Shown here one piece after another: positions 1,543-52,459 of a stretch of 64,000 bases of DNA (position 1 is the first letter of the stretch; every line of letters begins with the position of its first letter). Source of the stretch: Squalus acanthias (Eukaryota); assembly GCA_030390025.1 (NCBI GenBank), contig CM059432.1:51090001-51154000 (forward strand), written 5' to 3'. The position numbers and the translations under genes are program-made. The notes under the pieces are model-generated. The model saw only the letters and a program-made list of their open reading frames with translations, had not been told where the DNA came from and made no database searches.

Positions 1543-4096
1543 TAGGCCTGTATTCTCTTGTATTCAGAAGAATGAGAGGGGATCTCATTGAAGCATACAA
1601 AATTATTACAGGGTTTGATAGGGTGGATGCTGGGAGAATGTTTCCCTTGGCTGGGGAGTCTAGAACCAGGGACCACAGCCTCAGGATAAAGGGTAGGCCA
1701 TTCAGGACTGAGATGAGAAGAAATTTCTTCACACAGAGGGTGGTGAATCTTTGGAATTCACTACCCCAGAGGGCTGTGGAGGCTCAGTCATTGGGTATAT
1801 TCGAAACAGAAGTCGATAGATTTCTGACTAGTAAGGGCATCAACGGATATGGCGATAGGGCCGATGAATGGAGTTGAGGCAGAAGATCAGCCATAATCTT
1901 ATTGAATGGCGGAGCGGGCTCGAAGGGCCGAATGGCCTACTCCTGCTCCTATTTCTTATGTTCTTATGTTCTTAAAATTTAATAACGTCCCCAGTGTGCT
2001 GTATTTTGATTTTTTTCCAGCCCGCGATTGATCAGCCCCACTGAGGCTGATATGCATGTATCGCAGGTGCTGTTGATGACCATTCCCAGCCTCAGCCTTC
2101 AATGACTGCAGCATTGGCCTTTCCCTTTAAGGGAGGGAAGGAGCCTGTAAAACCGACAGCGCTCCATGGAACATTGTTCAGCACACTGCCGCTACCACCC
2201 CTCTCGCTCCCTTTAAAGCTCTGAGGAAAGTGGTTAGCGCTTAATTGAGTGTTCCACTTCCCTCTTGGAGTGCTAAAGCTGAATTTCCCGTCAGGAGAGA
2301 ATCATTAGCGCCTAGCACTACTTTTCCTACTTTTCAACCGGGGCAATACCCAATTTCTAATACCCTCCATTTTCAACATAACTTATGCTGAAAAACATGA
2401 ATTTTGCCACTGGAAGATGTTAAGGGTAAGCATTCTAGTGATACCTTTAGTTTGAGAAATCTTAGTTGGGCAAAATTAAAGTATACAGATCCTTTAAATC
2501 AATTGTGTTTTCTTCAAGAGAAACATAAAAACTGGTAAATGCTGGAACTTTGAAATCAAAGCAGTTTCCCCACAAAGAGGAAGGAAGGATTACCCAAACC
2601 ACACTCAAACATAGCAATTACACAGCCACATTGGAAGGAGTCTGGGAACAAGGTTCTTCTCTGTGTTCTGCATGGTGTGGTGTGGAGTCCAAGAGTAAGA
2701 GGAGAAAAATATATCTATTTTTTGATCTACAATATTTTGTTTGCCAACTAAATACAAACTGGACTAATCATATCATTCCAGAAAGTGGAAATGCATGGCA
2801 GGCCTATTAGCGATTGCAAAGTGAAAAGATGGATTCATGTTTCATGTGCTGACCCTTCAGTGGAAGATATTTGATTTGTTTGTTCAAGTTATCTTATTTT
2901 TAAACTCTGTTTCAGATATAAGCACAGATTGCTCAGTAAGAAATTCCATAGTTATTAGTAACTGGAAATAACTGTGATATTAGTATATGAATGTTTGAAG
3001 CATTTATAAGAACATAAGAACATAAAAAATAGGAGCAGAAGTAGGCCATTTGGCCCTTCGAGCCTGCTCCACCATTCAACAAGATCATGGCTGATCTACC
3101 TCAACTCTACCTTCCCGCACTATCCCCATATCCCTTAATTCCCTTAGTTCCCAAAAATTTATCGACCTCTGTCTTGAATATACTCAACGACTGAGCATCC
3201 ATAGCGCTTTGGGATAGAGAATTCCAAAGATTCACAACCCTTTGAGTGAAGAAATTTCTCCTCATCTCAGTCCTAAATGGCCAACCTCTTATTCTGAGAT
3301 TGTGATGCCATGTTCTAGATTCCCCAGCCAGGGGAAACATTTTCTCAGCATTAACCCTGTCAACCCCTTAAGAATTTTATATGTTTCAATGAGATCACCT
3401 CTCATTCTTCTAAACTCCAGGGAATATAGGCCTTGTCTACTCAATCTCTCCTCATAGGGCAATTCCCTCATCCCAGGAACCAGTCTAGTGAACCTTCATT
3501 GTACTCCCTCTAAGGCAAATATGTATTTCCTTAGGTAAGGAGACCAGAACGGTACACAGTACTCCAGGTGTGGCCTCACCAGTGCCCTGTATATTTGTAG
3601 CAAGACTTCTTTACTCTTATACTCTAATCCCTTTGTAACAAAAGCTAACATACCATTTGCTTTCCTAATTGCTTGCTGTACCTGCATGTTAACTTCTGTG
3701 ATTCATGTACAAGAACACTCAGGTCCCTCTGAATGCAAACATTTCCCAGTCTCTCACCATTCAAAAAATATTCTGCTTTTTTGTTTTTCCTACCAAAGTG
3801 GATAACTTCACACTTCCCCACATTGGCCCACGATTTTGCCATAGAAGGCGGGTTCGCGTTGGGTTAGCTGGTCGGCGGATTCTGGTCCCGCTGCTGGTTT
3901 CAGCTGCACTGAAATAACTATTTTGACTTAACTGGGTTTATTAAGCCCGCCGTGCGCGTTACCCGGCTCAATCAGTGGGTTCGGGTCTGTTGCTCGCCTC
4001 TGCTGACGTCTTTGATTCAGCTGCATTTAAGGGGCACATGCAGCCTTGTGGTGTTTCATTCACATTCTGATGCTTCTCAGTCTTACTGATAGCGAG

Positions 4097-5965
4097 ATGA
4101 CTGCTTCAAGAGCCAAGGCTTCTCCCAGATTTGATGATGACTCCCTCCATGCTCTTGTGGAGGGAGTGAGAGGGCGAAAGGAGGTTCTGTTCCCCTCCAA
4201 TGGACATAGGAAGCCTCCTCAGCAAACCAAGGCAGCCTGGCTGCAAATTGCTGAGGAGGTTTGTGCCAGGTCTTTGTGTTCACGCACCTGGGTTCAGTGC
4301 AGGAAAAGGTTCAATGATCTGCTTACCTTCAATCTGCTGCCCATCTCTTCTCATCACCAGCACTCTGCATTGTCAACCTACTCATCCACATCCCAACTTA
4401 CCCTTACATCCCTTGTACCCTTAACCGTCCCTCTCTATGTACAGACTCACTCCACCATTCTACTGTGCACGCCTCACACTCGCTATCACTTTTATGCAAT
4501 GACAATAACTAATAACACACAGGAAGGGCCCTTGGTATTGGCACCTCACTCCGTCTTTGTCTCCCTCTAAGCATCTATGCTATGGATTCTCTACACTGAC
4601 TCCAGCATTCTCACTCAAACTCTACTTCTGTCCCTCATTGCAGGAAAAGAGAGCCCACAATAAGAGGGAGAGGGTGAGGACATGAGGAGGGCCACCTTCG
4701 ATGGCGCACTTAACCACCACTGAGGAGGCTGCTCGCGACATCGTCGGAGGTGCAGTGGAGCTGGAAGTGGGGGACGGAGAGATGGGCGCAGTAGAGCAAG
4801 CTGGTGACAGAATAGATTTGCAACCCTCTCATTTAGATTTCATGAGTGACTGATATGGCATCTGATGTTCATACAGACTAAGTTCTGATCATCTGCACAA
4901 TGGGATGTGTCTGCTACGTTAATATCACATATCTAACTCATGCCTTTACTCCCCCACAGGAGAGCCCCCCTCTCCACTGTCCAGGAGGAAGAGCCAGAAG
5001 ACTACTCAGAGGAAGCTGCAGCCTCTGAGGGTGCAGTGTCAGCAGAATTGAGCGCACCCAGCTCCAGCGCAGAGACGCACACTTTGGTGGGTCATTCGCA
5101 AGATAGGTTAGTGTTGTCAGCTGGTGTATCACAGCTCACAAGTGAGCATCAGCAGATAATAGAAACAGGGACAGCAGAGGAGTGTCCTCAGCGGAGGATT
5201 GTTGGATGCTCCTAGCTCTGCCCAGCTGCATGTGGACACTGTGCCTCTGGGGCCATCCAGAAAGAGAGCAGTGCTGGAACTTCAGGAACAAGTACAGGAA
5301 TCTCTGACAGGGTTTGCAACCACTGTAACTGCGAGTGTGCAGAGAATGGAGGAGTCCATCTCAAACATGAGCAATGCCATGGTGCACGCAATGGCGAATG
5401 TAGGTGCCGCCATGGAAAGGATGGCAACCTCCATGGAGGACATAAATCGCCAGACTCAAATGAACATGGTGACTCTTCTAAATAGATGGTCTGCTATGGG
5501 GGATAGATGGGCATCTATTGAGGAGAGGAACCAGAGGTACATGGATGTCCCCATTATGAGGACTGTCAGTACAGAGACGGATCCTCATGGCCCCACTGAT
5601 GTACAGCAAGGTGCTCTCCAGCTACTTGCTAGCAGTGAAGTGCGGGTGACCCATGAGAGGGATGTTGGTGGTCGACAGCAATGAAGTGTGGGCTCCTCTC
5701 CAAGTGCTCACACTCCCATGCCACTGCGGAGCCCTCAGAGCCCCAGATTCCTGAACCAACTGAGATGGCCGTCTCAGGCCCTGCACAGCCGCAGGAGGAG
5801 CAGACTGTTGCGGAGTCCTCCCATGCTCCCAAACCCAGAGGACACCCGCCAAAGGTGTCGAAGCAGTTGCAGCATAGAAGTGAGCAAGGTGCCTCTACAT
5901 CTGCTGAAGCCACAGGGGAAGCACCACGTAGAAGCATGCGTAAGAGAAAGTTAACACTCAAATAG
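4097..5965 (+). pseudogene. Harbinger Myb/SANT-like gene, copy A (exons ~4097-4325, 4644-4803, 4960-5965)
   Basis: PRFDDDSL...AWLQIAEEV...RTWVQCRKRFNDL; exon 2 is 160 nt as in the other copies; exon 1 donor deleted; internal stops. Confidence 0.85.
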
Positions 5966-6269
5966 TCATAAGGATAGTCACTTGGGTGTTTTGATCTAAT
6001 GCAAAGTTACGTTTCTCATCGTTATTTCAATTGTATTAAAGAAATGCGATGGTAAAGATTCAAAGAGTTGGCCTATGTGTGCTCAGAAATGGAAGTTATA
6101 CAGTGAGGGGTCAGGGCACCTTTCATCTGTAATGATGGTGGTGTGAGTGATAGGAACCCACAGTTTATTGTACAGATGCTGTATGGTGTGTTAAGAAGGT
6201 CGGTCAGGCACTCATTACCATGTGCCAGCCACATGTGTTTGATGTGTAATCTTACGCAAATCTGGCATG

Positions 6270-6826
6270 GATTAGTGTATCCCTTGCCTCACGGCCAGCA
6301 GTGTGCTCGCGTGCTGGTGGAAGTGGCACATCCACCTCCGCAAGGTCTTTCTCATCTGCCGCCTCCTCCTACTCCTCCTCCTCCTCTTCTGAGGAGGCTG
6401 TGCGCTGAGCCTCTTGTTCCTTGGGCAGCGGTAAGCCACGCTGCTGTGCGATGTTGTGCAGGGCACAGCAGACCACGATGATTCTGGAAACGCTGGCTAG
6501 TGCGTACTGTAGGGCTCCACCAGATCTGTCGAGGCATCTGTATCACATTTTGAGCAAGCCGATGGTTTGCTCTATGATGCTTCTGGTGGAAATGTGGCTC
6601 ACATTGTATCGCTCATCCTCGGCCTGTAAACCCTGTGTTGGGGGTATCTCCTGCGGCACGGAGCAGCCCTGCGCTGACACCCTCTGCCCTGTTCAGCATC
6701 AGGTGGCTGAGGAGAAGGTTGGCGCTCCTGTTGTGGCTGCTGCTGTTGTGCCCGGTTCTGCTGCTGCCGCGGCTGCTCTTCCTCCGATTCTGAGGACCAG
6801 GATGAGAGGGTATAAATGGTTCCCAT
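6270..6826 (-). pseudogene. HARBI1-type transposase remnant with internal deletion
   Basis: N-terminal RRRYPQHRVYRPRMS joined at ~6612 directly to C-terminal RYNVSHISTRSIIEQTIGLLKM*YRCLDRSGG...VCCALHNIA. Confidence 0.85.
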
Positions 6827-9800
6827 TCTGCTGGTATATATCTCAGTTGAGGAATAGATGTTATAAGCGCTCAGTCAATGTGGGGAGAGGGTTTTCCAAG
6901 GAGGTCACAGAGCATATGGATCTCAGATTAAACACTTACAAGCTCAATAGACCTGCAAAATGTGTTCCAAAACCTCAAAACAGGATGTTCTGCCATCTGA
7001 AAGTGAGCCATGTTGCAGGTCCGCTTTTATGCTGCAGGAGCAGCTGTCAAGTATTCAGCTAGTTGCTGAACCCGGCACAATCAGCTGGCGTGTTTGTCGC
7101 ACGACGTGGAACACACTGAAAATATAGCAAAATGGGAAGAGCCTCTTAAAATAGGATTATCCAGGTAGTTAACAAGCTGTTAACTGCCTTAAGTGGCTCT
7201 CTCGCCGCTTGGTGTCGGGTCTGATTGGAACTCGCAGACCCGACACTTTGTAAAGTTGCGTGGAGGTGGGATGGCAGCGGGTTTGCAACCCCCCATCAAT
7301 CAACCAAAGTTAAGGTAAGTAAAACTTTTTCCCACACTTAGCACTTACCTTACACACTTACCTCTGCACACATGCACCCATCACTCACCTGCCCACCGGA
7401 CATATCGACCCCTCCAACCCCTGCAGACCCATGGCCCGCCCCGATAACTTGGCGTGGTTGCCACCTGTCGGGAAGCCCACATTTCAGCAATGAAAATAGG
7501 GATTATGCAAAAAACTGCCTGTTAACTACCTGTTAACAGGCAGTTAATTGTCACTAATCCTTTCCCACCTCGGGGAGTCGGGTCTCAGCACAGGTCGGGT
7601 ACCCGCCGCCAGAGAAACTGGCATGGAGTCGGGTTGGAGGCGGGATGGGGTCGGGACCCCCGAATCTGCAACTTTAAACCCCCCCCCGCCTCCAAACCTG
7701 ACTCCACGGGTCATTGAAAATCCAGCCCATTGTATTCCATTTGCCATGTTTTTGCCCACTCAATCAACCTGTCTATATCTCTCTGCAGCCTCTTTGTGTC
7801 CTCCTCACAGCTTACTTTCCCACCTAACTTTGTATCATCATCAACTTGAATACGTTACACTCAGTCCCTTCATCCAAGTCATTAATATAACTGAGGCCCA
7901 AGCACTTATCCTTAGCTAGTTACAGCCTGCCAACCCGAAAAAGTCCTGTTTATTGCTACTCTCTGTTTTCTGTCCATTAACCAATCCTCAATCCATGCTA
8001 ATATATTACCCCCAATTCCATGAGTCCTAATTTTGTGTAATAACCTCTTGTGTGGCACCTTATCGAATGCTTTTTGAAAATCCAAATACACTACATCTAC
8101 TGGTTCCCCCTTATCCATCCTGCTAGTTACATCTTCAAAAAACTCTAACAGATTTGTCAAACACGATTTTCCTTTCATGCTGACTCTGCCTAATCATATT
8201 ACGATTTTCTAAGTGCACTGTTACCACGTCCCTAATAATAGATTCAAGCATTTTACCTACTACTGATGTCAAGCTAATTGGCCTATAGTTTCCTGTTTTT
8301 TCTCTTCCTCCTTTCTTAAATAGTGTGGTTATGTTTGATACCTTCCAACCCTTGGGGACTGTTCTAAAATCTAGGGAATTCTGGAAGATTAATACCAGTG
8401 CATCCACTATCTCTGCAGCTACCTCTTTTTAAACCCTAGGATGCAGGTCGTCAGGTCCAGAGGATTTGTCGCCACTTAGTCCCAGTAATTTCTCCAGTAC
8501 TATGTCTTCACTTATGCTGATTTCTTCAAGTTCCTCATTCTCTCTAGACCCTTGGTTCCCCATTATTTCCAGAATGATTTTTGTGTCTTCTACTGTGAAG
8601 ACAGATACAAAGTATTTGTTTAATGTCTCTGCCATTTCCTTATAATTTCTCCTGTCTTTGCTTCTAATGAGCCCACATTTGCTTTCACTAGTCTCTTCCT
8701 ATTTACATACCTATAGAAACTTTTACAGTCTGTTTTTATGTCTCTTGCTAATTTACTCTCATATTCTTTTTCCTCTTTCCTTATCCATCTCTTGGTCCTC
8801 CTTTGCTGAATTCTAAAATCCTCCCAATCCTCAGGCTTACTACTCTTTTTGGCAACATTATAAGCCTCTTCCTTTGATCTAATACTATCTTTAACTTCTC
8901 TTGTTAGCCACCTTTAGACCACTTTTCCTGTGGGGTTTTTGTGCCTTAAAAGAATGTATATTTGTTGTAAATTATGTATTAATTCTTTAAATGCTAGCCA
9001 TTGCTTGTCCACCATCATACCTTTTAATGTAGTTCCCAATCTACCTTAGTCAACTCGCCCCTCATACCTACGTAGTTTGCTTTGTTTAGATTTAAGACCT
9101 TAGTTTCAGACTTAACTAAATCACTTTCAAACTCAATATAAAATTCTATCATATTATGGTCACTCTTTCCCAAAGACCCCTTTACTACAAGGTTATTAAT
9201 TAACCCTTTCTCATTGCACAATACTAGATCTAAAATAGCCGGTTCCTTAGTTGGTTCCTCAACATACTGATCTAGAAAACTATCTTGTATACATTCCATA
9301 AACTCGTCCTCCACTCTATTACTGCAAATTTCATTTGCCCAGTCTATATTTAGATTAAAGTCCCCCATGATTACTGTATTACCCTTGTTACATGCACCTC
9401 TAATTTCCTGATTTATACTCTGCCCTACATTAAAACTATTGTTTGGGGGCCTATAAACAACTCCCACCAATGTTTTCTGCCTCTTGTTGTTTCTTAGCTC
9501 CACCCAAACTGATTCTACTTCTTGATTTTCAGAGCTAAGATCCTTTCTCTCTACTGTCTTTGTCCCATCTTTTGTTATCAGGGCTACCCCTCCTCCTTTT
9601 TGATTTTGCCTATCTCTTCTAAAAGTTAAGTATCCTGGAATATTTAGTTCCCAACCTTGGTCACTTTGCAACCATGTCTCCGTAATGGCTATTAGATCAA
9701 ACCTATTCATTTCTATCTGTGCTATTAATTCATTTATTTTGTTGCGAATGCTTTGCACATTCAGATATAGTGCCTTTAGCTTTGACTTTTTTCTATTTTT

Positions 9801-11495
9801 CCCTGATGTCACCTTAGTCATTGATGCCCTATTACCTTTGTTACTCTCTCTGTCCCTTCCTGACCCACTCTGCTTACTTTTAACCAAAACTCTGCTCTGC
9901 TCTAGAGCCTTGACATTTCCCTTGCTGCTTTTAAATTTACTCTTTCCTGAATCCTCCCTCCCCTCATTTCATTAGTTTAAAGCCCTATCTACTGCCCCAG
10001 TTATTCGATTCGCCAGGACACTGGTTCCAGCCTGGTTTAAGTAGAGCCCGTCCCAGCGGAACAGCTCCCTCTTTCCCCAGTACTGGTGCCAGTGGCCCAT
10101 GAAGCAAAACCCCTGCCTCCCACACCACTCTTTCAGCGATGCATTTAACCTTCTAACCTTCTTATCCCTATGCCAATTGACGTGTGGCTCAGGTAACAAT
10201 CCAGAGATTATTAGCTTTGAGGTTTTGCTTTTTAATTTGGACCCCAACTCCTCAAACTATCTCAGAAGAACCTCATTCCTAGTTCTACCTATGTCGTTGG
10301 TTCCTATGTGTATAATAGTTAATCTAGTTCTGAATTTAACCCACTAACCTAACCTAGAGAGCAAAAGAGCTGTAATACTCCCCAACCAGTCACCAACCTG
10401 CTGTCCTGTGACGTCACTCCTTGTTTTTTTATAAGTTGCCGCTCAGCTCCCTTTAAGCTGCCGCCTCCGCTGCTGCCGCTTCCGCTCAGGTCCACACTGT
10501 GTCCTGTGTTATATGATACTTCTCCGTACATTATCTGAATGGAGGTCTTAATCCATTTCTTTTTTGTATTCTAATGCTCCAAACTCTAATTTGTTGGATG
10601 ATCTAATCAGTTCAGTTAGTATTTAGTTGGCAGACAAAACATTATAAACCACCGTAAAAACTTATATTTTTTCTCCTCTCTGTCTTTCTTGAACTCCATG
10701 CTCCATACCCAGTTAAGAACATAGACAAGAAGCTCAGTCCCAGACTCCTTCCAATGTATTTCTGTAATTGCTCAGTTTGGGTAATCCTTCCTTCTTCTTT
10801 GTGGGGAACTCTTGAACTCCTTTCACTGTTTTCTTCAGGTGATATGGTTGAGATGGAGAAATTAATGCAAGGGGATCATGGATATAAAGTCACTGCTTGG
10901 TATTTGGTGACATAGTGCCCTGGTGCATCAACTCCTTGTACTGAAGGGTTACCTAATCGGAATTTCATATTATCTGTTCCAGAAATCTTATAAATATGGA
11001 ACATTATATTATATTTTAAAAACATCTGACAATAGCTCTTAAGGTGTGATTTTTATGTCGTGATCATGGATTTAACACATGGATGTTGACACTTAGCCCT
11101 CTATACATATGCATGTTTTTTTTTAGTTTGACATGATTGAAAATGTGCTAAACACTCTTTCTCCAGTAAAAATGTCATCCAGTGGCAGCTGATTCACCAG
11201 TAAATACATGGTGTAAGTAGGACAGGGAAAGATCTACTCTTCCGGATGGAGAAAATTAGCATGGAGATGAGCAGCTGCAGAAGTACCCAAACGAAAGCAA
11301 ACATTAAAGAAAGAAAGATAGAAAAAATGAACTTGCATTTATATATTTACTTCTATTTACATAAATTAGAATAAAGGAAATGACAGATGCATGAGTAAGA
11401 ATTTACCTGAAGATCTTCCCTTGTATTTTATGAAAACACACTCTGGGGCAACATAAACAATCTGCTGCTTATCATGCAATTTCAGTAAAATCAAT

Positions 11496-11850
11496 GGGGG
11501 AGAAATTGGATAGCGTGTGGACTGGCTGCAGAGAACAATCCCTGAACCAGGTAGGCCTGAGACCAGATCAAAATTGGACCTTGGGCCTCAATTAAATTAG
11601 ATCGATGAGCTGCGGATGCCTGTGGCACGTCCACAGGCAGCTTACTGGCGAAGCAAACATCAATTTCGGGCTCGGCCCTCAGGTAGGTCATGAGGGCGGG
11701 GGTGGGGGGTGGAGGCAATCAGGGCTGCAGCAGAGCCGGGAGCAGCAATCTCACTCCTCCGGGCTCCACATTCAGGTAATTCTTTTCACAAAGCTTACCT
11801 TGTTGGTGGCCAGCTCAAGCGATCCCTTTAAGGACTGTTGGTTAAGCAGT
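11496..11850. mobile_element. Left fragment of a Harbinger-type MITE, followed by an L2-type tail (11851-11900)
   Basis: Starts GGGGGAGAAATTGG as at 348; followed by CTACGTTAAAGGTGC..ATAAATACAAG(TTG)n. Confidence 0.55.
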
Positions 11851-13581: not shown

Positions 13582-14512
13582 AACCCAGAGCCTGCACAGC
13601 CATAATCACTGTGGCTGAAACACCACTTGTGTTCCTCCTTGCAGGAAAAGGTAGCCCACAATAAGAGGGAGAGAGCAATGACTGGAGGAGGAACACCTAC
13701 CCTAGCAAAATTGACCAGTGCTGAGGAGGCTGCAAACGAGATTGTTGGCGGTGGTGAGGACCTGGAAGTGGGTGATGGCGAGACGGGCACACTAGAGGAA
13801 GCTGGTGACATAATAGAGTTTCATCCCTCTCAGACTGCAATGGCATATGATGTTCATAGACAATCGCATTGTATCATCTGCTCAAAAGGATGTGTCGGCT
13901 ACATCAATATCAGATGTCTAAATCATGCCTTTACTCTCCCACAGGACCATCGAGCGCCCCCCTCCCATGATCCAGGACGAAGAGCCGGACAACTCCTCAG
14001 AGGAATCTGAAGCCTCTGAGGGAGCAGCGTCACCAGGACTCAGCGCACCCAGCACTAGCGCAGCAACGCTCACCTCGGTGGGGCCATCGCGATCTGGAGT
14101 AGTGTTGCCACCTGGTCTATCACAGTTTACAAATGCGCATCAGCAGATGGTGGAGACAGCGACAGCAGTGGAGAGTTCTCGGCAGAGGTCGCAGGACGCT
14201 CCTAGCTCTGCTGAGCTGCATGCAGACACTGTGGGCTGGATTTTGTCAGTGTGGGCGGGCTAGGGCGTGTCAGGTGGAAATCGTGTCAGGACCCCGACTC
14301 CTAAGTGAAGTGCTGAAAAAGTCCGATTTTCCCCTAATTGGGCAATTGATTTCCTGCGTGTGGGAACACCTGGCCCAATGAGTCTTTTCATACAGAAAGT
14401 CGCCTCCGATGACATCATCAATGCTGCTGGATTTAAGACCTGCAAGCAGCCTTGCTTCCTCTGGAGACTGCAAAGGCTCTGCAAATTGTATGAAGGTGTT
14501 GATTTCCCGACA

Positions 14513-16500
14513 ATGTCCACGATCAAGCAAAAGTCTGCACCTCGGTTTGATGAGCCCTCCCTCCAAGCTCTGGTGCATGGAGCCAGATGTAATAAGGAGG
14601 TGCTGTTCCCTTCCTCAGGGAGAAAAAAGCCACCCCAGCAGACAAAAGCTGTGTGGCTGCAAGTGGCCCAGGAGGTCAACTCCATCTCGATGAGCCGCAG
14701 AACCTGGCTGCAATGCAGGAAGAGGTTTCATGACCTTCTCCGCACAGGAAAAGTGAGTATGACTTTCCCATCACCCTCAATCTGATCCCCATCGCCTCTC
14801 CTCACCAGCACTCTGCTTTGCCAACCTCTTCCTCCACATGCCACTTGACACTTACATGCCTGCACCCTTACCCATCCCTCTCTCTCTCGAAAGTCACATT
14901 CACTTAACTATTCGACCATGCAGCCCTCACACTCCCTCTCACTGTGATGCCATGACAACAACAACTTTCAACACACAGGGATGGTCCTTTGTATCCTTCT
15001 AAGCATCTATGCTATGGATTATCTACACTCACTCCTTCATTCTCACTCAAACTCCACTTGTGTCCCTCATTGCAGGAAAAGAGAGCCCACAATAAGAGGG
15101 AAAGAGCGAGGACAGGAGGAGGGCCACCCTCAGTAGCCCAGCTCACCGCCTGGGAGGAGGCGGCCCTGGAAATCACTGGGATCGAGGAGGATTCCCAAGT
15201 GGGGGACGGACAGATGGGCACATCGCAGCAAGCTGGTGACAGAATAGTTTGGCATCTCTCTCATTGACATTGCATGAGTCACTGATAATGAATCTGATGC
15301 TCTAACAGATTTACTTATGATCATCTGCACTATTCAATGTTCATGTAACCTTGACCTCACATCTCTAACTCTTTCCTTTACTCCCCCACAGGACCATCGA
15401 AAGCCCCCATCCCCACTGTCCAGGAGGAAGAACCTGAGCTTCCAGACTCCTCAGAGGAAGCTGCAACCTCTGAAGGCGCAGCCTCAGCAGAATTCAGCGC
15501 ACCCAGCACCAGCGCAGACACTCACACCTCGGTGGGACCTTCACGAGATAGAGTAGTGTTGTCACCTGGTGTATCACAGATCACAAGTGAGCATCAGCAG
15601 ATGGTGGAGACAAGGACAGCAGTGGAGAGTCCTCGTTGGAGGGCACAGGACTCTGCCAGCTCGGCTCAGCTGCATGTCGACCCTGTGCCTCCGGGTCCAT
15701 CCAGAACGAGAGCGGTGCTGGAACTCCAGGAAGAGGTGCAGGAGTCTCTTGCAGGTTTTGTCTCCAGGGTCGCTGCGAGTGTGGAGTGAATGGAGGAGTC
15801 CATCACGAACATGAGCAGAGCCTTTGTGGAGGCATTGGCACATGAACGCATCAACGTGGAAAGGATGGCAACCTCCGTGGAAAGGATGGCTACCTCCACG
15901 GTAAGGCTGGCTACCGTAGAGGAGAGGATGGCTACAGTAGAGGAGAGGATGGCTACGGCCATGGAGGAGCTTAGCCGCCAGGGTCTTGAAAACATGGTCA
16001 TTGTTCAGAATAGACTGGCATCTCTTGAGGAGTGATGGTCAGCTATTGAGCATAGAAACCAGACCTTCATGGAAGTCCTCTGGAGTAGGACTTCCAGTGC
16101 AGAAACGGGTCCTCATGGCCCCCCTGCTGTGCAGCAAGGTGCTGTCCAGCCACTTGCTAGCTCTGAAGTGGGGCTGACCCATGAGAGGGATGTTGGTGGC
16201 ATACAACAAGGAAGTGGGGGCTTCTCTCCAAGCACTCACATGACCATGCCACTGCAGAGCCCTCGGTCAGAGCCCCACCAGAGTCCCCACCCAACTGAGA
16301 TCGGCGTCTCAACCCCTGCACAGCCGCAGGAGCAGCAGACTGTTGCTGAGCCCTCACAGGTTCGCAACCCCAGAGGACGCCCGCCAAAGGTGTCGAGACA
16401 GGAGCAGCAAGAAAGTGAGCAAGGGGCCTCCACATCTGCTGAAGCCACAGGGGAAGCACCACGTAGGAGCACGCATAAGAGGAAGATAATGCACAAGTAG
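14513..16500 (+). pseudogene. Harbinger Myb/SANT plus coiled-coil gene, copy C (exons 14513-14752, 15076-15235, 15392-16500; about 502 codons spliced)
   Basis: GT-AG junctions join in frame (240 + 160 + 1109 nt); the only lesions seen are TGA stops at 15787 and 16033, which are CGA in copy D. Confidence 0.9.
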
Positions 16501-16689
16501 TCACTAGGGTTGTCATTCGGTGTAATGTGTTTAATTTTGAGAAGCCATCAGTTGCTTATTGTCGTAAAAAATTCTGATGGCAAACTGTTGAAGTTGTGGC
16601 ATGTGTCATTTCGCTAATGGGACTTCCACATTGAGGGCTTAGGGTGACTTGCAATTGTCAGTATGGTGGTCAGACTGAGAGGAATCCGC

Positions 16690-16981
16690 AGGTTCTTGTC
16701 CATTGTCGATGCTCTGGTAAGAAGGTGCGAGGCTAAACTGTTTGATTGTGCAGGCTAAGCATATGTGACCAACATGAGTGCGTCCCTTGCATCCCAGGCA
16801 GCAATGTGGTGGCGCTCTGGCGCCTTCTGGCCTGTGCATCTTCAGGTGGGTGACTAGCAGCTTGGCGCTCCTGTTGATGTTCCTGCTGTTGGTGCTGCTG
16901 TTGCTCATGGTTCTGCAGCTGCCGCGGCTGGTCTTCATCCGAATCTGATGTCCAGGAAAAAAGGAATTAAATGGTCGCCAT
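16690..16981 (-). pseudogene. Transposase stub of Harbinger C (Q-rich N-terminus only)
   Basis: Homologous to the start of 6599-6826; no DDE core between it and the Myb 3' end. Confidence 0.7.
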
Positions 16982-31190: not shown

Positions 31191-31335
31191 AATGTTTTTG
31201 TTAGGTTTTAGATAAGCAAAGCATGATGTTTGTTTCTAAAAGCTCATTTTGAGTCGTTTTGTGACCTTCGCTGCAATTGTAACTGAGAAGTTTTGTTGAG
31301 GTGAACATGATCTCTTGTATTCTGATAGGATATGA

Positions 31336-42303: not shown

Positions 42304-44467
42304 ATATTTACTAAATCCTACAGGTAGATTCTATCCTACAGATATGCCATTGAATGTCAAGGGGCAGTGGTTAGACTCTCTCTTGTTGGAGATAGTCATT
42401 GCCTGGCACTTGTGTGGCGTGAATGTTACCTGCCACTTATCAGCCCAAGTCTGAATGTCGTCAAGGCCTTGTTGCATGCGGGCATGGACTGTTTCATTAT
42501 CTGAGGAGTTATGAATGGCACTGAATACTGTGTAGTCATCAGCGAACATCCCCATTTTTGATCTTATGATGGAAGGAAGGTCATTGATGAAGCAGCTGAA
42601 GATGGTTGGGCCTAGGACACTGCCCTGAGGAACTCCTGCAGCGATGTCCTGGGGCTGTGATGATTGACCACCAACCACCACAACCATCTTCCTTTATGTT
42701 AGGTATGACTCCAACCAGTGGAGAGTTTCCCCCCCCGATTCCCATTGACTTCAGTTTTACTAGGGCTCCTTGATGCCACACTCGGTCAAATGCTGCCTTG
42801 ATGTCAAGGGCAGTCACTCTCACCTCCCCTCTGGAATTCAGCTCCTTTACCCATGTTTGGACCAAGGCTGTAATGAGGTCTGGAGCCGAGTGGTCCTGGC
42901 GGAACCCAAACTGGGCATCAGTGAGCAGGTTATTAGTGAATAAGTGCCGCTTCATAGCATGGTCGATGACACCTTCCATCACTTTGCTGATGATTGAGAG
43001 TAGACTGATGGGGCAGTAATTTGCTGGATTGGATTTGTCCTGCTTTTTGTGGACAGGACATACCTGGGCAGTTTTCCACATCGTCGGATAGATGCCAGTG
43101 TTGTAGCTGTACTGTAGAGGTGCGGCTAGTTCTGGAGCACAAGTCTTCAGCACGACAGCTAGGATGTCGTTGGGGCCCACAGCCTTTGCTGTATCCAGTG
43201 CACTCAGCCGTTTCTTGATATCACGTGGAGTAAATTGAATTGGCTGAAGACTGGCTTCTGTGATGGTGGGGACCTCAGGAGGAGGCCGAGATGGATCATC
43301 CACTCGGCACTTCTGGCTGAAGATGGTTGCAAATGCTTCAGCCTTGTCTTTTGCATTCACGTGTTGGGCTCCACCATCATTGAGGATGGAGATATTCATG
43401 GAGCCTCCTCCTCCCGTTAGTTGTTTAATGGTCCACTACCATTCACGACTGGATGTGGCAGGACTACAGAGCTTTGATCTGATCCGTTGATTGTCAGATC
43501 GCTTATCCCTGTCTATAGCATGATGCTTCTGCTTTTTAGCATGCATGTAGTCCTGTGTTGCAGCTTCCCCAGGTTGGCACCTCATTTTTAGGTATGCCTG
43601 GTGCTGCTCCTGGCATGCTCTTCTACACTCCTTATTGAACCAGGGTTGGTCACCTGGCTTGATGGTAATGGTAGAGTGAGGGATATGCCGGTCCATGAGG
43701 TTACAGATTGTGGTGGAATACAATTCTGCTGCTGCTGATGGTCCACAGCGCCTCATGGATGCCCAGTTTTGAGCTGCTAGATTTGTTCTGAATCTGTCCC
43801 ATTTAGCATGGTGGTAGTGCCACACAACACGATGGAGGGTGTCCTCAGTGTGAAGATGGGACTTCGTCTCCACAAATACTGTGCGGTGGTCACTGCTACC
43901 AATGCTGTCATGGACAGATGCATCTGCGACAGGTAGATTGGTGAGGATGAGGTCAAGTAGGTTTTTCCCTCGTGTTGGTTCTCTCACCACCTGTCACAGG
44001 CTCAGACTGGCAGCTATGTCCTTCAGGACTCGGCCAGCTCGGTCATTAGTGGTGCTTCCGAGCCACTCTTGGTGATGGACATTGAAGTCCCCCACCCAGA
44101 GTACGTTCTGTGCCCTTGCTACTCTCAGTGCTTCTTCCAAGTGGTGTTCAACATGGCGAAGTACTGATTCATCAGCTGAGGAAGGGCGGTCAGTGGTAAT
44201 CAGCAGGAGGTTTCCTTGCCCATGCTTGACTTGAAGCCATGAGACTTCATGGGGTCCGGAGTCAATGTTGAGGACTCCCAGAGCCACTCCTTCCCGACTG
44301 GAAGGAGTGTAGTGCCATGCCACTGGATGTAGTGTAGGAAGTGGTTTAATGACCTAACCAGGTCAGGAAAGGTGAGTACAGTTGCACATTCATCTACATC
44401 CTGATGTGCATATTACCCCAAACCCCTCACTCTGTCTTCTCAAGCATACTCTATCACATCACTCCCA

Positions 44468-44540
44468 ACAACAACAACAACAACAACTTATATTTATAAA
44501 GCACCATTAACTTAATAAAACGTCTCAAGGCGCTTCACAG
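44468..44540 (-). mobile_element. L2-type SINE tail in intron 1 of the Harbinger E Myb gene
   Basis: (CAA)n followed by CTTATATTTATAAAGCACC. Confidence 0.65.
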
Positions 44541-45934
44541 GAGAGTTATCAAAGAAAACCATCCACTTACCTTGCAGGTGCACCCATCCTTCTCTGTCTA
44601 TGCACGTCCTCACATCCCCTTCTATCCAAACATCACTGCCACTCACCCTCATCCTTTAGCAATTTCATGCTTCTCCCCGATACCCTCACCAAATGCACTC
44701 CATCCATCGCTGAACACATGCCTTTAAACTCACTCATAGGTCTGTTCTTTCCCTCGTTGCAGGAGAAGAGCACACAGAACATGACGGAAAGAGAGAGAAC
44801 TGGAGGTGGTCCTCCGAACATCTCGCAACTGACAAGCACAAAGGAGGAGGCGCTGGAAATCAGTGGAGTTTCGGCATCCCTGGTCGTCAGCAATGGGGAG
44901 ACGGGGAGCTCCCAGCTATCTAGTGACACAATTAAATATTAGCAACCTACATGTCAGACAACACTCAGACATGTTGACTTAATTTCAACAGCAAGTGAAA
45001 TATGATCATCTTCATAATGATAACTTGCAACATATTCTTACCTTGCCAGGACTAATTCATGTCTTTTATCTCCGACTGGGACTTCATTTGTGCAGCAGAA
45101 GTTGGTGGAAATCGCTGCCACCGATTCCTTAGAGGAGCTGAATCCTTCTGAGGGTGCACCGTCACAGGCCTCGTGCATACCATGCACCAGCTCAGATACT
45201 TTGGTGGGACCACATAGGCAGGGTTTTTCCCCTGGTGACTCACACTTCACAAGTGAGCAAGAGCAGATGGTGGTGGTGGGGACAGCAGTGGAGAGTCTGT
45301 GTTGGAGGAAGCAGCTCTCTCCAAGCTCTGCTTAGCTGGACATGGATGTTGTACCCCGGGGGTTGTTGATGAAAAGGAGAATCATTGAGCAGCAGCAGAC
45401 AATGTGCGATGCACTGACAGGCCTTCCAAGCACACTGACTGTGACTGCAGAGAGAATGGAAGAGTCTGCCTCAAACATGAGTGGGTTGATGTCGCAGGGC
45501 ATTGTGACGATGTCTTCTTGCATGGATAGAGTGGCCAACTCCGTGGAACATTAAATGTGGCTGTCAACTGAGTCCATGCAGCCCGTGACTATGGCCGTGC
45601 AGACTCTGGATGACAACACCTTAACTAGGATGACAGATACCTTAGCCTTGACCTTACAATGCTGCCTTGATCTGCACCAAAGTGCTCACCACCACAGTGA
45701 TAGCAGTGAAAAGTGGCTGGCCATGAGAGGGATGATGGCGAAAGGGGACATGGAAGTGGGGACTCCACTCAAAAGTGCTTCCACTTCTCATCCATTATGC
45801 CTCCCTCAGTCAGTAGCCCACATTTTGCCTCGACTCCCGATGTCCAAGTTCGCCCCTGCATGGGTGCAGGTGGAGTAGTCTTTTGCGGGCCCCTCACAGG
45901 CTCCAAAACCCAGAGGATTTCGGACAAGAGCATC

Positions 45935-47459
45935 TCAGCAGTCAGAGCTTGGACTGCCGCAGGCCAAAAGCATCATGGCAGCTGCCTGGGAATCTTGCGC
46001 AAACCTGCAGAAATATCTTTATGTGGATGCGCACCAGCTGCATATTGACGGAGTGGAAGCCCTTGCCTTTTACGAATACTCCTGGGTGATTTGGGGGTGC
46101 CCGGATTTTCACGTGTGTATAGTCGGTGATGTCCTGCACCTGTGGGAAGCCAGCCAGATATGCAAACCTGAGTGCCCACTCATTCTGATTGGTGTCATCG
46201 CTGGCGAAGTTGACTTAATTGCTTGCCCTGGCAAACAAGCCATCAGTCACATGTCTTAGGTATTTGTGGGCCGCCGACTGGAAGATCCTGGATGTGTCTC
46301 TGGCAGAACCCTGGAAGGATCTGTAGGCAAAAATGTTGAAGGTGGTGGTCACTTTCACAGCCACTGGTAATGCATGGCCACCAGGTCCAGCAGGGAGCAG
46401 GCCTTCTTCTAGGAGGCTGCAGATATCTGCCACCACCTGACGTGACAACCTGAGCCTCCTGAGCTGTTCAGATATGTCAAGGAAACTGAGTCTCTGCCTG
46501 TAGACTCTGTTTTGTGCGTAGTGCCTCCTGTGCGCTGCACCCCTCTGCAGCTCCCCTCTCTGCTTGTCTCCTCTCTGCTACTCCCGATTCTGCTGGTCTC
46601 CTCTCTGCTATTCCCCTCTCTGCTGGTCTCCTCTCTGCTGGTCTCCTCTCTGCTGGTCTCTATTCTGCTGGTCTCCTTTCTGCAGCTACCCTCTCTGCTG
46701 GTCTCCACTCTGCTGGTCTCCACTCTGCTGCTCTCCTCTCTGCTGCTCTCCTCTCTGCTGGTCTCCTCTCTGCTAGTCTCCTCTCTGCTGGTCTCCTCTC
46801 TGCTGCTCCCCTCTCTGCTGGTCTCCTCTCTGCTGGTCTCCTCTCTGCTGGTCTCCTCTCTGCTGCTCTCCCCTCTGCTGCTCTCCTCTCTGCTGGTCTC
46901 CTCTCTGCTGGTCTCCTCTCTGCTGCTCCCCTCTCTGCTGGTCTCCTCTCTGCTGGTCTCCTCTCTGCTGGTCTCCTCTCTGCTGGTCTCCACTCTGCTG
47001 GTCACCTCTGCTACTCCCCTCTGCTGGTCTCCTCTCTGCTGGTCTCCTCTCTGCTGCTCCCCTCTCTGCTGGTCTCCACTCTGCTGGTCTCCTCTCTGTT
47101 GGTCTCTTGTCTGCTGGTTTCCTCTCTGCTGCTCCCCTTTCTGCTGGTCTCCTCTTTACTGGTCTCCTCTCTGCTGGTCTCCTCTCTGTTGGTCTCTTGT
47201 CTGCTGGTCTCCTCTCTGTTGCTCCCCTTTCTGCTGGTCTCCTCTCTGCTGGTCTCTTCTCTGCTGGTCTCCTCTCTGTTGCTCCCCTTTCTGCTGGTCT
47301 CCTTCTGCTGCTCCCCTCTCAGCTGTTCCCCTCGCTCCAGCTCCCCCTCTGCTGCTGCCCTTTCTGCTGTCCAGCTAAAGGTCTCTGAACAGCAGGCTGG
47401 TGCTGGTGCTGGTGGTGGTCATATTGGTCCTCATCCGAGGTCCAATCTAAGGCAGCCAT
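45935..47459 (-). pseudogene. HARBI1-type DDE transposase, N-terminal and central part, disrupted
   Basis: RVYRQRLSFLD..LRLSRQVVADIC, HALPVAVKVT, ITDYTHV, KGFHSVNMQLV, RFPGSCHDAF; truncated against the Myb 3' end. Confidence 0.9.
46540..47370. repeat. 15-bp minisatellite (CTGGTCTCCTCTCTG)n, roughly 50 or more units
   Basis: Seen directly; explains the SREET, LLVSS and SPLCW ORFs. Confidence 0.97.
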
Positions 47460-49230
47460 AGCACCACCTATCTTGATGTGATAGAACAAACATCCAAAGT
47501 GTAGAAAGTAAACTTTCAGCAAAACTATAGTGAATAAACCCTTTCTCACTAGCAGGCAAGAAAGCAGCTGTGAGTACTGAGTAGTTATTGCCATATTTCC
47601 ATGAGATTGATTGAACCCCTCAATTGCCGCTGTGCTCTTGTCTTGCTTTCACTGCCGAGTTTCAGGAAGCCCGGGAAACCCGTGGACCCGATGTTAAACT
47701 CAAAAATGTGTTTAAATATCACTCTAATTGAGCGATTAACATATGTTAATTGGTAATCCGTCTCTCCTGAGGGGTTTGTGCGCACACTGCCTAATGCACT
47801 TGAGTGAAATGCGGAAGTCCGTGGGTTGGATCCGCTTTCCTGGCGCTGGTTGTCAATTTCACCTGCTTTAACCCCTCCCCACCCGCATCCAAACCCACGC
47901 GCTCCACCATGTTAAAATTCCACTCATTGTCTTTATAAACTCTCTTTTTGTTCTTGGACCTGAGTTTAAACCTAACCCAGACTGATGAGATGTAAGTCTT
48001 CTGTCCCTGCTGGCTGTAAAGATCCTATGAATTTGGACAGGCTTTTTCCAGTTCCTACTGGGTATGAGCCATAGCATAAAATTGATCTTAATTTGGCAAT
48101 AACTGGTGATCAAGAGACTACAAAAATGACTGTTGTAAGAAATTCACGCTAGTGCTCAATCGGTAGATCATGTGCGCTGAGGTCAGAACTAAAGCAAATT
48201 GTTGGAGCTAAGTAGAAGGTGATTTACTTTTCACCTAATCCATGCTGTATGTGACTTTAGACTGCTGTTTTCCTTCCTTTTTCCACCAATTCTGTCCTCT
48301 CACCTTCTCCTTTCCTCAAGGTGTTGCTGCTTTGCTTGGATATGGACCAATGAACGCCTGTCATTCTCTAGTACCTCATCTAACTCACCTAATTTCTTCA
48401 CGTGCAAGTCAGGAAGTGAGTGCTAGCAAGCTATTTGATTACAGGGGAAGGGGAGGAGATTGGAAAGGTATTAAACTTGAGACCAATCCAGTCCTCACCT
48501 GACATATACACACACACGGGCGCACACGCACACGTGCCTACATGTACATGCACACTTCTACCAGGGGCCACTGGATAGTACTTAGCCATGTGAATCCTTA
48601 ATGACTTTCCCCTCCGTAATCCAGGGTGCTTAGGTCGACCAACTGAACCACTTGTAGGAGCTGTGACTCAGGACTGTCTTGATGCTGACAATGGATGACT
48701 GCAATTGGTTAGTGTTCCATTCCCAAAAGTCAAACGCCTCACAAAAAGGAAAAATATTGTTTGCCGCACAACTGTGACCATTCATCATGTCACTTGGTCA
48801 ATAAAGAGTGGAAATGAGCATTTGTACAGGTTTCAGTAAACCATGCAAGTTTGATTAATTTCACATTCCAACTGGAATAAATAGAAATTGGAGTCTTGTA
48901 ACAGTGCATCAAAAGCACAATTCAATGATTTATTTTGCTATTTTTTTTTATTAGAACAATCTTATTAATCACATCCTTACTGAAATTATTTAAAACTGAC
49001 ACAATTAAGACTTTTTTAATGCCCCATGAATATGTACTTGCATTAACATATGTACATTGTAATATTCCTATCTCATGAAGAGTGACATCTACAATAGGAA
49101 TAGCATCCAAACTATGGTCATGGGCTAGTTCCTTTCTTTGAGCCTTGGATGAAGGGACCGAGTGTATTGTAGCCAAATTTGCTGATGATACAAAGATAGG
49201 TGGGTTAGCAAGTTGTGAGGAGGACACAAA

Positions 49231-52200
49231 GGGCTGGATTTTGTCAGTGTGGGCGGGTTGGGGCATGTCAGGTGGAAATCGTGTCAGGACTCCTAAGTGA
49301 TGTGTTGAAAAAGTGGGATTTTCCCCAAACTGGGCAATTGATTTTCTGCGTGTGGGAACCCCTGGCCCAATGAGTCTTTTCATACAGAAAGTCGCCTCCG
49401 ATGACGTCATCAATGCTGTTGGATTTAAGGCATGCAAGCAGCCTTGATTCTTCTGGAGACTGGAAACGCTTTGGACATTGTATGAAGGACGTATTTTACC
49501 GACCATGTCCACCAGCAAGCAAAAGTGTGCACCTCGCTTTGATGAGCCCTCCCTCCAGGCTCTGGTGCAGGGAGAAAGATCTAATAAGGAGGTGCTCTTC
49601 CCTTCCTCAGGGAGAAAAAAGCCACCACAACAGACTAAAGCTGTGTGGCTGCAAGTGGCCCAGGAGGTCAATGCCATCTCTATGTGCGGCAGAACCTGGC
49701 TGCAGTGCAGGAAGAGGTTTCATGACCTTCTCCGCACAGGAAAAGTGAGTATGACTTTCCCATCACGCTCAATCTGATCCCCATCGCCTCTCCTCACCAG
49801 CACTCAGATTTGCCAACCTCTTCCTCCACATCCCACTTGACACTGACATCCCTGCACCCTTACCCATTCCCTCTCTCTCTATGGTCACATTCACTTAACT
49901 ATTCGACCATGCAGCCCTCACACTCCCTATCACTGTGACGCAATCACAACAACTTACAACACACAGGGAGGGCCCTTTGTCTCCTTCTAAGCATCTATGC
50001 TATGGATTCTCTACACTCACTCCTTCATTCTCACTCAAACTCCACTTGTGTCCCTCATTGCAGGAAAAGAGAGCCCACAATAAGAGGGAAAGAGCCATGA
50101 CAGGAGGAGGGCCACCCTCAGTAGCCCAGCTCACCACCTCGGAGGAGGTGGCCCTGGAAATTGCCGGGATTGAGGAGGATTCCCAAGTGGGGGATGGAAA
50201 GGCGGGCGCATCACAGCAAGCTGGTGACAGAATAGTTTGGCATCTCTCTCAATGACATTGCATGAGTGACTGATAATGATTCTGATGCTCTAACAGATTG
50301 ACTTATGATCATCTGCACAATTCAATGTGCATACAACCTTTACCTCACATCTCTGACTCTTTCCTTTACTGCCCCACAGGACCATCGAGAGCCCCCGTCC
50401 CCACTGTCCAGGAGGAAGAGCCTGAGCTTCCAGACTCCTCAGAGGAAACTGCAACCTCTGAGGGCGCTCCGTCAGCAGAATTAAGCGCACCCTGCACCAA
50501 CACAGACACTCACACCTCGGTGGGACCTTCGAGACATAGGGTAGAGTTGTCACCTGGTGTATCACAGCTCACAAGTGAGCATCAGTAGATGGTGGAGACA
50601 GGGACAGCAGTGGAGAGTCCTCGTCGCAGTGGAGAGGACGCTCCCAGCTCGGCTCCACTGCATGTCGACCCTGTGCCTCTGGGTCCATCCAGAAGGAGAG
50701 CGGTGCTGGAACTCCAGGAACAGGTGCAGGAGTCTCTGGCAGGTTTTGTCTCCAGGGTCGCTGCGAGTGTGGAGCGAATGGAGGAGTCCATCGCTAACAT
50801 GAGCAGAGTCTTTGTGGAGGCATTGGCGCATGAACGCATCACCACGGAAAGGATGGCAACCTCCTTGGAAAGGATGGCCAACTCCATGGTAAGGCTGGCT
50901 ACCATAGAGGAGAGGATGGCTATGGTAGAGGAGAGGATGGCTACGTCCATGGAGGAGCTTAGTCGCCAGGGTATGGAACACATGGTAATTCTTCAGAATA
51001 GACTAACATCTCTTGAGGAGCGATGGTCAGCTATTGAGCAAACAAACCAGACCTTCATGCAAGTCCTCTGGAGTAGGACTTCCAGTGCAGAAACAGGGTC
51101 CTCATAGCCCCCCTGCAGTGCAGCAAGGTGCTGTCCAGCCACTTGCTAGCTCTGAAGTGGGGCTGACCCATGAGAGGGATGTTGGTGGCATACAACAAGG
51201 AAGTGGGGGCTCCTCTCCAAGCACTCACACGACCATGCCACTGCAGAGCCCTCGATCAGAGCCCCACCAGAGTCCCCACCCAACTGAGATCGGCGTCTTA
51301 ACCCCTGCACAGCCGCAGGAGCAGCAGACTGTTGCTGAGTCCTCACAGTTTCGCAACACCAGAGGATGCCCGCCAAAGGTGTCGAGACAGGAGCAGCAAG
51401 AAAGTGACAAGGGGCCTCCACATCTGCTGAAGCCACAGTGGAAGCACCACGTAGGAGCATGCGTAAGAGGAAGATAATGCACAAGTAGTCACAAGGGTAG
51501 TCACTTGGGTGTAATGTGTTTAATTTTGAAAAGCCATCAGTTGCTTATTGTCATAAAAAATTCTGATGGCAAACTGTTGCAGTTGTGGTGTGTGTCATTT
51601 CCACATTGAGGGCTTAGGGCTACTTGCAATTGTCAATATGGTGGTCAGAGTGATAGGAATCCGTAGGTTCTTGGCCATTGTCGATGGTCTGATAAGAAGA
51701 TCTGAGCAAATCTGGCCAAGATGAGTGCATCCCTTGCATCCCGGGCAGCAATGTGGTCGCGCACTGGCGCCTTCTGGCCTGTGCAGCTTCAGGTGGCTGA
51801 GCAGCAGCTTGGCGTTCCTGTTGTTGCTGCTGCTGTTGGTGGTGCTGTTGTTCATGGTACTGCTGCTGCCACGGCTAGTGTTCATCCGAATCTGATGTCC
51901 AGGAGGAAAGGAAATAAATGGTTCCCATGCTTCTGGTATATGCCTCAGTTGAGGAAGCTGCTCAGTCAAGGTAGCGAGAGGGGTTTCCCAGGAGGTCACA
52001 CTGGAGATGGGTGTCAGGCTCCAAACTTCCACAACAATGGGTATGCCTGCTAAAAGTTCCCCCAGACCTGAGACAACAAAGTTCTGCCACCTGCAAATGA
52101 TGATTGCTGAAAACTCCTTTTTAATGGTGGAGCTGCAGCTGTTAGTAAGCAATCCACTTGTGAGGCCACCAGGATTCACTGGCGTGTTCCAGAGGAGATG

Positions 52201-52459
52201 TGCAGGACGTGGGAAAAGTGGTAAACTCAGAAAGGCCTCTCAAAATGGGATTATCGAGGCACTTAACTGGTTGTTAAGGGCATTAAGGGCCTATCCCGCC
52301 TCTTGGAGGCAGGATGGAAACGGGGTCAGAAAACACACATTTGGGAAAATTGCTCGGAGGCGGGATGGAGGCTGGATCGGGCCCGCCCGCCATTTTTTGG
52401 TGATTTTACCACCTCACACGTCTCCAATCCGCCTCCTCGGGTCTGGCAAAATTGAGCCC
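49231..52459 (+). mobile_element. Harbinger D, same family as C
   Basis: TIRs GGGCTGGATTTT and AAAATTGAGCCC; colinear with C; no TSD (AAA versus TTG). Confidence 0.93.
49505..51488 (+). pseudogene. Harbinger Myb/SANT plus coiled-coil gene, copy D (exons 49505-49744, 50064-50223, 50380-51488)
   Basis: Same exon sizes as C; TAG at 50586; +1 and -1 frameshifts near 51095 and 51406. Confidence 0.88.

Follow-up and report, generated by a model that had tools for sequence, protein, structure and literature searches.

Can a Harbinger transposon that has lost its nuclease keep a working gene for its DNA-binding partner protein? The question is raised by a 64,000-nt stretch of the Squalus acanthias genome (assembly GCA_030390025.1, contig CM059432.1, positions 51,090,001 to 51,154,000 of the forward strand; hereafter the window, with positions counted from its first letter), which reads as a repeat-rich region where many Harbinger derivatives are interspersed with CR1- and L2-like long interspersed nuclear elements (LINEs; the LINE names were assigned by reading the sequence). 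In eukaryotes, what a DNA transposon encodes works in trans, and a non-autonomous copy is thus expected to gain little by retaining a gene. Two elements in the window, C and D, share one deletion of nearly the whole transposase gene, keep a three-exon gene for a Myb/SANT-like protein, and belong to a family probably numbering roughly thousands of copies. Between these two, the exon that encodes the Myb domain shows signs of purifying selection. The simplest reading, to which we give an even chance, is that a semi-autonomous lineage made a working DNA-binding adaptor and borrowed its transposase; C and D themselves are dead copies now.

A Harbinger family without its transposase gene

The elements carry the letters of an earlier note on this sequence, which gave no coordinates for them; those assigned here to A, C and D are given in Table 1. 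The letter B corresponds to the 3' part of one host element that we call EB, and the letter E to either the 5' remnant of EB or element F. EB was interrupted by the insertion of C, with TGT duplicated at both sides, and joints corresponding to the empty site (14224-14228 to 17511-17516) are present in three of the four public runs aligned. C and D are 90% identical and 3.2-3.3 kb long. In each, a 502-codon gene occupies three exons of the plus strand, and what is left of the transposase is a stub on the minus strand. Both have terminal inverted repeats (TIRs), of whose 12 bases 11 match in C and 10 in D. Short TIRs, 3-bp target duplications at C (TGT) and A (ATT), a Myb/SANT-like gene and remnants of a DDE_Tnp_4 transposase gene place these elements in the PIF/Harbinger superfamily. 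[quoted passage not shown]

An intact catalytic transposase is absent from these elements, the gene being deleted in A, EB, C and D, and F having kept the N-terminal half and lost the C-terminal one. The remnants lie on the strand opposite to the Myb gene, tail to tail with it, and have DDE_Tnp_4 / HARBI1-like homology, of which C and D keep the terminal codons only. The junction shared by C and D lies at a 7-nt imperfect microhomology (about 16814-16820 in C). In A, about 72 N-terminal and 118 C-terminal codons are left, residue ~68 being fused to ~288 of the 408-aa shark transposase P0008, so that both catalytic Asp regions are deleted and positions 89-158 of the Pfam DDE_Tnp_4 profile alone remain. 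In EB, about 20 N-terminal transposase codons are fused to the acidic tail. A protein search with the A remnant gave 33 matches, at up to 63% identity. Sharks account for 31 of these, and the name 'putative nuclease HARBI1' is likewise borne by 31. These shark proteins are the nearest relatives of the stubs, but they are full-length models of other sharks and none is the partner of C and D.

The Myb gene fared better in C and D. All four introns have GT-AG borders, and the sole lesions of C are TGA codons at 15787 and 16033, both of which are CGA in D. D has a TAG at codon 203, a +1 frameshift near 51095 and a -1 frameshift near 51408, at positions that do not overlap with the lesions of C. 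Pfam PF13873 exceeds its cut-off in exon 1 of C, D and A, and the 465-aa homologue P0040 aligns to residues 1-497 of the C/D protein (38%, E 2e-89), crossing both splice junctions. The basic C-terminal tail of the family protein is presumably a nuclear signal. A HMMER search for relatives of the Myb protein found 11, none exceeding 49% identity, with no intact family member among them, and word-seeded protein searches with C exon 1 (against longer proteins) and C exon 3 gave no match at E 0.001, which are weak negatives. Exon 3 of C and D has additional heptad-like repeats at 15850-15990, which make it 84 nt longer than in A and 42 nt longer than in EB; a shorter, in-frame form of these repeats, with 42 nt less, is found in the X4 contigs described below.

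In the other elements the gene is decayed. A 32-nt deletion removed the exon-1 donor of A, which has additional frameshifts; EB has several frameshifts, and its Myb exon 1 was not found anywhere in the 64-kb window; and F has lost the 3' end of the gene. A and EB each arose by a deletion of their own and have since decayed, and the evidence for Myb function at family level concerns C and D. The earlier note was accurate about the three different transposase deletions, the single stub common to C and D, both TIRs in each of them, the three Myb exons with GT-AG borders and a 160-nt second exon, and the C frame broken just by two CGA-to-TGA changes. Its plural went too far, since A and B are single decayed copies here and one family, that of C and D, has been shown to have a readable Myb gene.

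That C and D represent a family is indicated by public runs, four of which were aligned to 14150-17600 at 85% likeness. The contigs of run X4 contain 0.57 of the words of 13590-19290 and come from a close relative, possibly another species; runs X16 and X17, guessed to be RNA, contain 0.23-0.27 of them; and a raw-read run (X22), with 73 reads aligned, was set aside. The alignments yielded 40 listed variant rows (312 further), 15 listed joints (25 further) and 22 listed loose ends (1166 further). In X4, 46,395 of 21,695,765 contigs aligned to the C region, where the summed depth is 98,494-743,374 over the 28 bins that lie entirely within C (about 109,000 at the deletion junction), compared with 6,073 in the host-flank bin. 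One contig (record 24) covers 16755-16893 without gaps and with 15 differences, and is thus a third copy with the C/D junction. Summed depth divided by the depth of single contigs (8-30) gives 3,600-13,000, a ratio that is not a copy number and for which 'thousands' is the most that can be stated. The spread of this form as a family, which the earlier note had claimed, is thereby borne out by depth and by the third junction.

The alignments also suggest that the majority frame of the family is that of C. Position 16033 reads C in 216,236 of the 218,363 summed depth in X4 (99%), so that the second stop is CGA there; among the listed variant rows there is neither a coding indel at >=20% in X4 nor the first stop (15787). 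D carries the majority letter at 29 of the 34 listed variant rows within C, most listed rows being near-fixed differences private to C. Exon 2 in the RNA-guessed runs has lost one base and gained another six bases away, the two changes cancelling out. The joint expected from splicing of intron 1 (14752 to 15076, GT..AG) is present in X16 and X17 contigs, at depths of 12.4 and 2.9, and absent from X4, which is a DNA run.

Selection on the Myb-domain exon

We compared the Myb genes of C and D by the ratio of nonsynonymous to synonymous divergence (dN/dS) and by a permutation test that redistributes the observed base changes. Three exons and three sub-regions were examined, exon 1 being the one expected to matter. 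In exon 1, dN/dS is 0.22 (95% bootstrap 0.06-0.57), or 0.28 (0.08-0.70) with transition weighting, and 11 of 19 substitutions are synonymous, with 4.0 expected (P=0.0003). The excess persists when CpG-type changes are left out (10 of 18, 3.7 expected, P=0.00085) and when D is taken as reference over 228 nt (10 of 19, 3.9 expected, P=0.002). Residues 27-56 and 63-80 have six synonymous changes and no amino-acid change. Exon 2 gives a dN/dS of 0.45-0.55, with intervals that include 1, and 6 of 15 synonymous changes (4.3 expected, P=0.24), and for all exons together the count is 36 of 108 (27.2 expected, P=0.03). The changes in exon 1 are mostly transversions (15 of 19) and nearly CpG-free, which is unlike simple decay after insertion. 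Besides, there are 2 coding and 12 non-coding indels between C and D, the coding part making up 46% of the compared length (P=0.014), though some of the non-coding gaps may be alignment noise. For this pair, the Myb-domain exon shows purifying selection; exon 3 and the stub look neutral.

The common junction suggests that selection came after the deletion. The sequence around the junction differs between C and D at 27 of 217 sites (12%), so the deletion is old enough, and the simplest order of events is deletion, divergence of sublineages with a working DNA-binding domain, and decay. The dS of exon 1, about 0.2, is not significantly above the rate of the junction region (Poisson P=0.09), and its dN is below a rate of 0.10 (P=0.005) and below the element-wide 0.081 (P=0.04). 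The stub was considered as a control for the time since deletion and rejected, as it is neutral in every comparison. The comparison between nuclease-less families that the earlier note had proposed was computed (C-A 0.48-0.62, C-EB 0.55-0.69, A-EB 0.71-0.92) and was also rejected as a test of selection, because the deletions in A, EB and C/D are independent, so that the divergence among them includes time as two-gene elements and cannot date selection.

A number of observations weigh against a maintained adaptor. Exon 3 has a dN/dS of 0.88-1.06 and 19 of 74 synonymous changes, with 19.0 expected (P=0.54); the whole-gene dN/dS is 0.60 (0.42-0.95), or 0.74 (0.52-1.17) with transition weighting; and the stub is neutral both between C and D (5 of 20 synonymous) and between A and D (5 of 27), hence does not discriminate. 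The signal consists of 19 substitutions in one exon of two compared copies. On the side of expression, intron 2 is unspliced in one X17 contig (record 10), its joint is not among the 15 listed, and an X17 contig with its end at the exon-1 donor has just 86% likeness to C, so that the transcripts may derive from a sister family; the runs themselves, from their word content, may come from other species.

Much of this would also be expected if the gene were a neutral passenger, spread in a single burst from a freshly deleted young master, with the synonymous excess due to chance. The neutrality of exon 3 and stub, the broken state of both copies and the preponderance of near-fixed C-private differences among the listed variant rows all fit such a history, and gene-less MITEs with similar ends have spread too. 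That all three one-gene deletions hit the transposase and spared the Myb gene has a P of about 0.05 under a crude random-breakpoint model, and of 0.14 for two of two when EB is not counted, in a sample of deletions picked by eye; sea kraits, moreover, produce solo-ORF variants of both kinds (PMC8437027). We nevertheless regard a passenger gene as unlikely, given P=0.0003-0.002 in the exon predicted beforehand to be relevant, the third-position, transversion-rich and CpG-poor character of its changes, and the uneven divergence described below.

Segment exchange, element ends and the proposed mechanism

The divergence between C and D is uneven along the element (chi-square 39.9, 21 degrees of freedom, P=0.008), being lowest in the exon-3 tail and the introns, and the dS of exon 1 exceeds the element-wide rate (P=0.008). 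A differs from D by 18% in the stub and by 34% in exon 1, and the degenerate end that belongs to A itself is followed by half a MITE, which makes up the final 425 bases of the element (7303-7728) and has 85% likeness to 53441-53867. Taken together, the uneven divergence, the region-dependent A-D distances and the chimeric end of A indicate that segments were exchanged among lineages, and two-gene relatives could have supplied exon 1. These findings, too, count against a maintained adaptor. They are what mosaic inheritance would predict, in which two-gene relatives renewed the exon 1 of a passive derivative time and again, through gene conversion or template switching, or in which the deletion recurred at the microhomology, itself 7 nt long and imperfect, in two autonomous sublineages; in either case selection would have accrued beside an intact transposase. 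We take this to be a real possibility, though clearly below an even chance. The 12% divergence in the junction region is compatible with the dS of exon 1, and no loose end at the junction is found among the 22 listed (6 from X4, the best with 34 contigs), so that, at 85% likeness, full-length elements closely related to the family are not conspicuous. Derived changes are likewise balanced, with 7 in C and 5 in D for exon 1 and totals of 91 and 99.

The exon-3 tail (16033-16500 in C, 51022-51488 in D) is the least diverged segment of the pair, with 13 differences in 135 codons and a dS of 0.02. Its dS is also low between A and C (0.16-0.18), pointing to conversion or to constraint at the DNA level.

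A G-rich hexamer is enriched at the ends of C and D, and we infer that it is the Myb binding site. It occurs at common distances from the 3' end (164, 100 and 89) in A, EB and two gene-less MITEs, and C and D have additional sites at 77 and 73 from the 3' end. Since the subterminal motif is common to gene-less MITEs, a private adaptor is not obviously required, which is one more point against its maintenance. The proposal in the earlier note, of a semi-autonomous element that supplies its own end-recognition adaptor and borrows a nuclease, is thus supported in part, for the C/D family, as far as the majority frame and the purifying selection on the Myb domain go, and not as far as the need of an adaptor for private ends goes, the motif and its distances being the same in MITEs.

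In the scheme that we favour, nearly the whole transposase gene was lost in a deletion bounded by microhomology, which founded an abundant shark Harbinger family, and this family went on transposing after the deletion, as its separate insertions and many related contigs demonstrate. The cutting would have been done by the transposase of a two-gene relative, as suggested by the known two-protein mechanism. Master copies would have expressed the spliced 502-aa Myb/SANT protein, the DNA-binding domain of which stayed, on this scheme, under purifying selection as the C and D sublineages diverged. Most likely, the protein would bind the G-rich subterminal motifs, load the borrowed transposase onto the ends and add to the supply of adaptor. 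The advantage under selection could have been a protein better suited to the ends of its own family, or it could have been adaptor dosage, and the data do not separate the two.

The Myb protein might, on the other hand, bind the ends to open, protect or repress them, as an anti-silencing factor or a repressor useful to the host, rather than to recruit a nuclease. It is indeed the DNA-binding exon alone that shows selection, and no sign of it was seen in the coiled and tail regions that might bind the transposase. However, exon 3 is weakly constrained between A and C too (0.68-0.85), lineages that had a transposase, and the copies are numerous, mobile and decayed rather than single-copy. A regulatory role, which the earlier note had offered as its second option, thus seems very unlikely, and for an anti-silencing role we found no evidence.

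An extension of the adaptor reading, rather doubtful in our view, is that of a long-lived nuclease-free Harbinger lineage, in which an adaptor evolving under selection redirects the transposase of another family to its own ends, and which is old enough to be shared by distant sharks. If true, this would mean that a non-autonomous DNA transposon has a gene that acts purely in trans and is selected at the level of the lineage. The sawshark gene model P0005 may be compared in this respect: its residues 1-52 match window positions 51685-51837 at 41% over 51 residues (E 0.002). The start of P0005 resembles the antisense of the stub as fused in the register of C and D, the left half by itself being weak (shuffle P=0.03), and this likeness could reflect an old common deletion, a hot spot or chance. 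In metagenome contigs, the C/D junction motif had 0 matches.

Known half-elements and neighbouring features

The Myb-only configuration is already in print, and what is added here is the shark family and the selection signal. In the nematode C. inopinata, the 258 copies of Harbinger-1M_cIno include 19 MADF-only, 5 DDE-only and 1 with both genes, and 14 of the 19 MADF loci are intact (PMC13668399). That 2026 paper describes a Myb-only Harbinger family that is still mobile, and calls supply in trans hypothetical. The likeness lies in the MADF-bearing, transposase-less derivatives that expanded and for which supply in trans is proposed. The nematode family is active, with tens of copies and one intact DDE donor, whereas the shark family probably has thousands of copies and is dead in the window; the words 'purifying' and 'synonymous' are absent from the main text of that paper, supplements aside, and for the shark family a selection signal has been measured.

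In sea kraits, the solo-ORF variants of Harbinger-Snek are predominantly transposase-only (2263, vs 452 DNA-binding-only; also 35 vs 6) and are regarded as probably non-autonomous, the passages of the paper drawn on here holding no selection test (PMC8437027). The transposase-only copies being five times commoner, a bias towards the Myb gene is no rule of the superfamily, and of the findings that the earlier note said would refute its idea, the one on equally common nuclease-only derivatives holds in this other vertebrate.

The Myb-like protein of zebrafish Harbinger3_DR binds the ends and the transposase and is required for nuclear entry of the latter, and rice Ping ORF1 functions with the Pong transposase and vice versa (PMC2836001). 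A borrowed nuclease is proposed for C and D because of this two-protein requirement and the Ping/Pong cross-complementation, in which ORF1 and transposase may come from different elements. These systems differ in being two-gene elements or gene-less MITEs, and a Myb-only family is not discussed in the portion of PMC2836001 used here. Such a family is likewise absent from the portions used of the rice and barley papers (PMC4423477, PMC5738225) and of a teleost survey (PMC9179366); the rice paper of this pair does report Mutator copies in which a broken transposase is accompanied by remaining parts of a second ORF. A shark Myb-only Harbinger was not found in the literature searched, which comprised open papers, with subscription papers, Repbase entries and supplements outside the search.

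If real, the selection signal would mean that nuclease-less half-elements exceed passive debris, and a maintained adaptor would provide a modular adaptor-nuclease pair. The probable thousands of shark copies with their diverged sublineages offer enough branches to test whether an adaptor is maintained after nuclease loss. If inheritance was mosaic or the gene a neutral passenger, the C/D family is an ordinary deletion derivative.

Table 1. Harbinger elements of the window and the gene parts that they retain.
Feature	Positions	Strand	Remarks
Element C	14233..17511	+	3279 bp; Harbinger without its nuclease, nested inside EB; 12-bp TIRs and TGT target duplication
C Myb exon 1	14513..14752	+	80 codons; Myb/SANT-like domain PF13873, E 4.6e-09
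C Myb exon 2	15076..15235	+	160 nt; frame continuous with full-length homologue P0040
C Myb exon 3	15392..16500	+	Acidic region, heptad-like repeats, basic tail
C transposase stub	16758..16981	-	~55 N-terminal codons fused out of frame to ~19 C-terminal codons
Element D	49231..52459	+	Member of the C family; same transposase junction, both TIRs, target duplication absent
D Myb gene	49505..51488	+	Exons 49505-49744, 50064-50223 (160 nt) and 50380-51488; PF13873 E 4e-10
D transposase stub	51701..51928	-	Same junction as C
Element A	3825..7728	+	ATT target duplication, decayed Myb gene, own transposase deletion, MITE-derived 3' end
A Myb gene, decayed	4097..5966	+	PF13873 above cut-off in exon 1
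A transposase remnant	6255..6826	-	Junction near 6610-6620
EB 5' remnant	13613..14232	+	Myb exon 2 and beginning of exon 3; exon 1 absent
EB 3' part (letter B)	17512..19284	+	3' TIR; remainder of Myb exon 3; third of the transposase deletions, near 18690
Element F	44324..47921	.	Start near 38365, split by CR1 insertions; comparison case, both genes damaged

No target-site duplication was found for D, its left flank being AAA and its right flank TTT. The left flank (49145-49230) is an 86-nt fragment of one CR1 subfamily, and the right flank (52460-53033) comes from another CR1 copy, whose 3' part lies here in inverted orientation and whose 5' part resumes at 52964 on the opposite strand. Both flanks match the palindromic target of the family, which suggests that a trans-acting transposase caused a rearrangement anchored at the end of D, or that two copies recombined. 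The insertion sites at 3825, 14233, 21682, 49231 and 53034 have a common palindromic context around a 3-bp core (ATT, TGT, ATA, TAT) that goes beyond TAA/TTA.

In element F, Myb exon 1 is in two pieces (38365-38491 and 44324-44371) with about 5.8 kb of LINE insertions between them, and in the N-terminus of the transposase (46525-47369) a 15-nt unit is repeated about 55 times, for the most part in frame and Gln/Arg/Gly-rich, ahead of a recognisable start of DDE_Tnp_4. The window also contains at least five TIR elements that lack genes, and one gene-less type of 720-770 bp is present in three copies (30427-31191, 35263-36028 and 54017-54733) with divergences of 3.6% and 12.8%. By eye, the two copies of a duplicated stretch of about 25 nt (11949-11975 and 13584-13610) enclose a MITE and a piece resembling L2, just upstream of the point where EB, truncated, begins, and 57340-57960 appears to be another, heavily deleted Harbinger-like remnant, with pieces that resemble the Myb tail and the transposase end.

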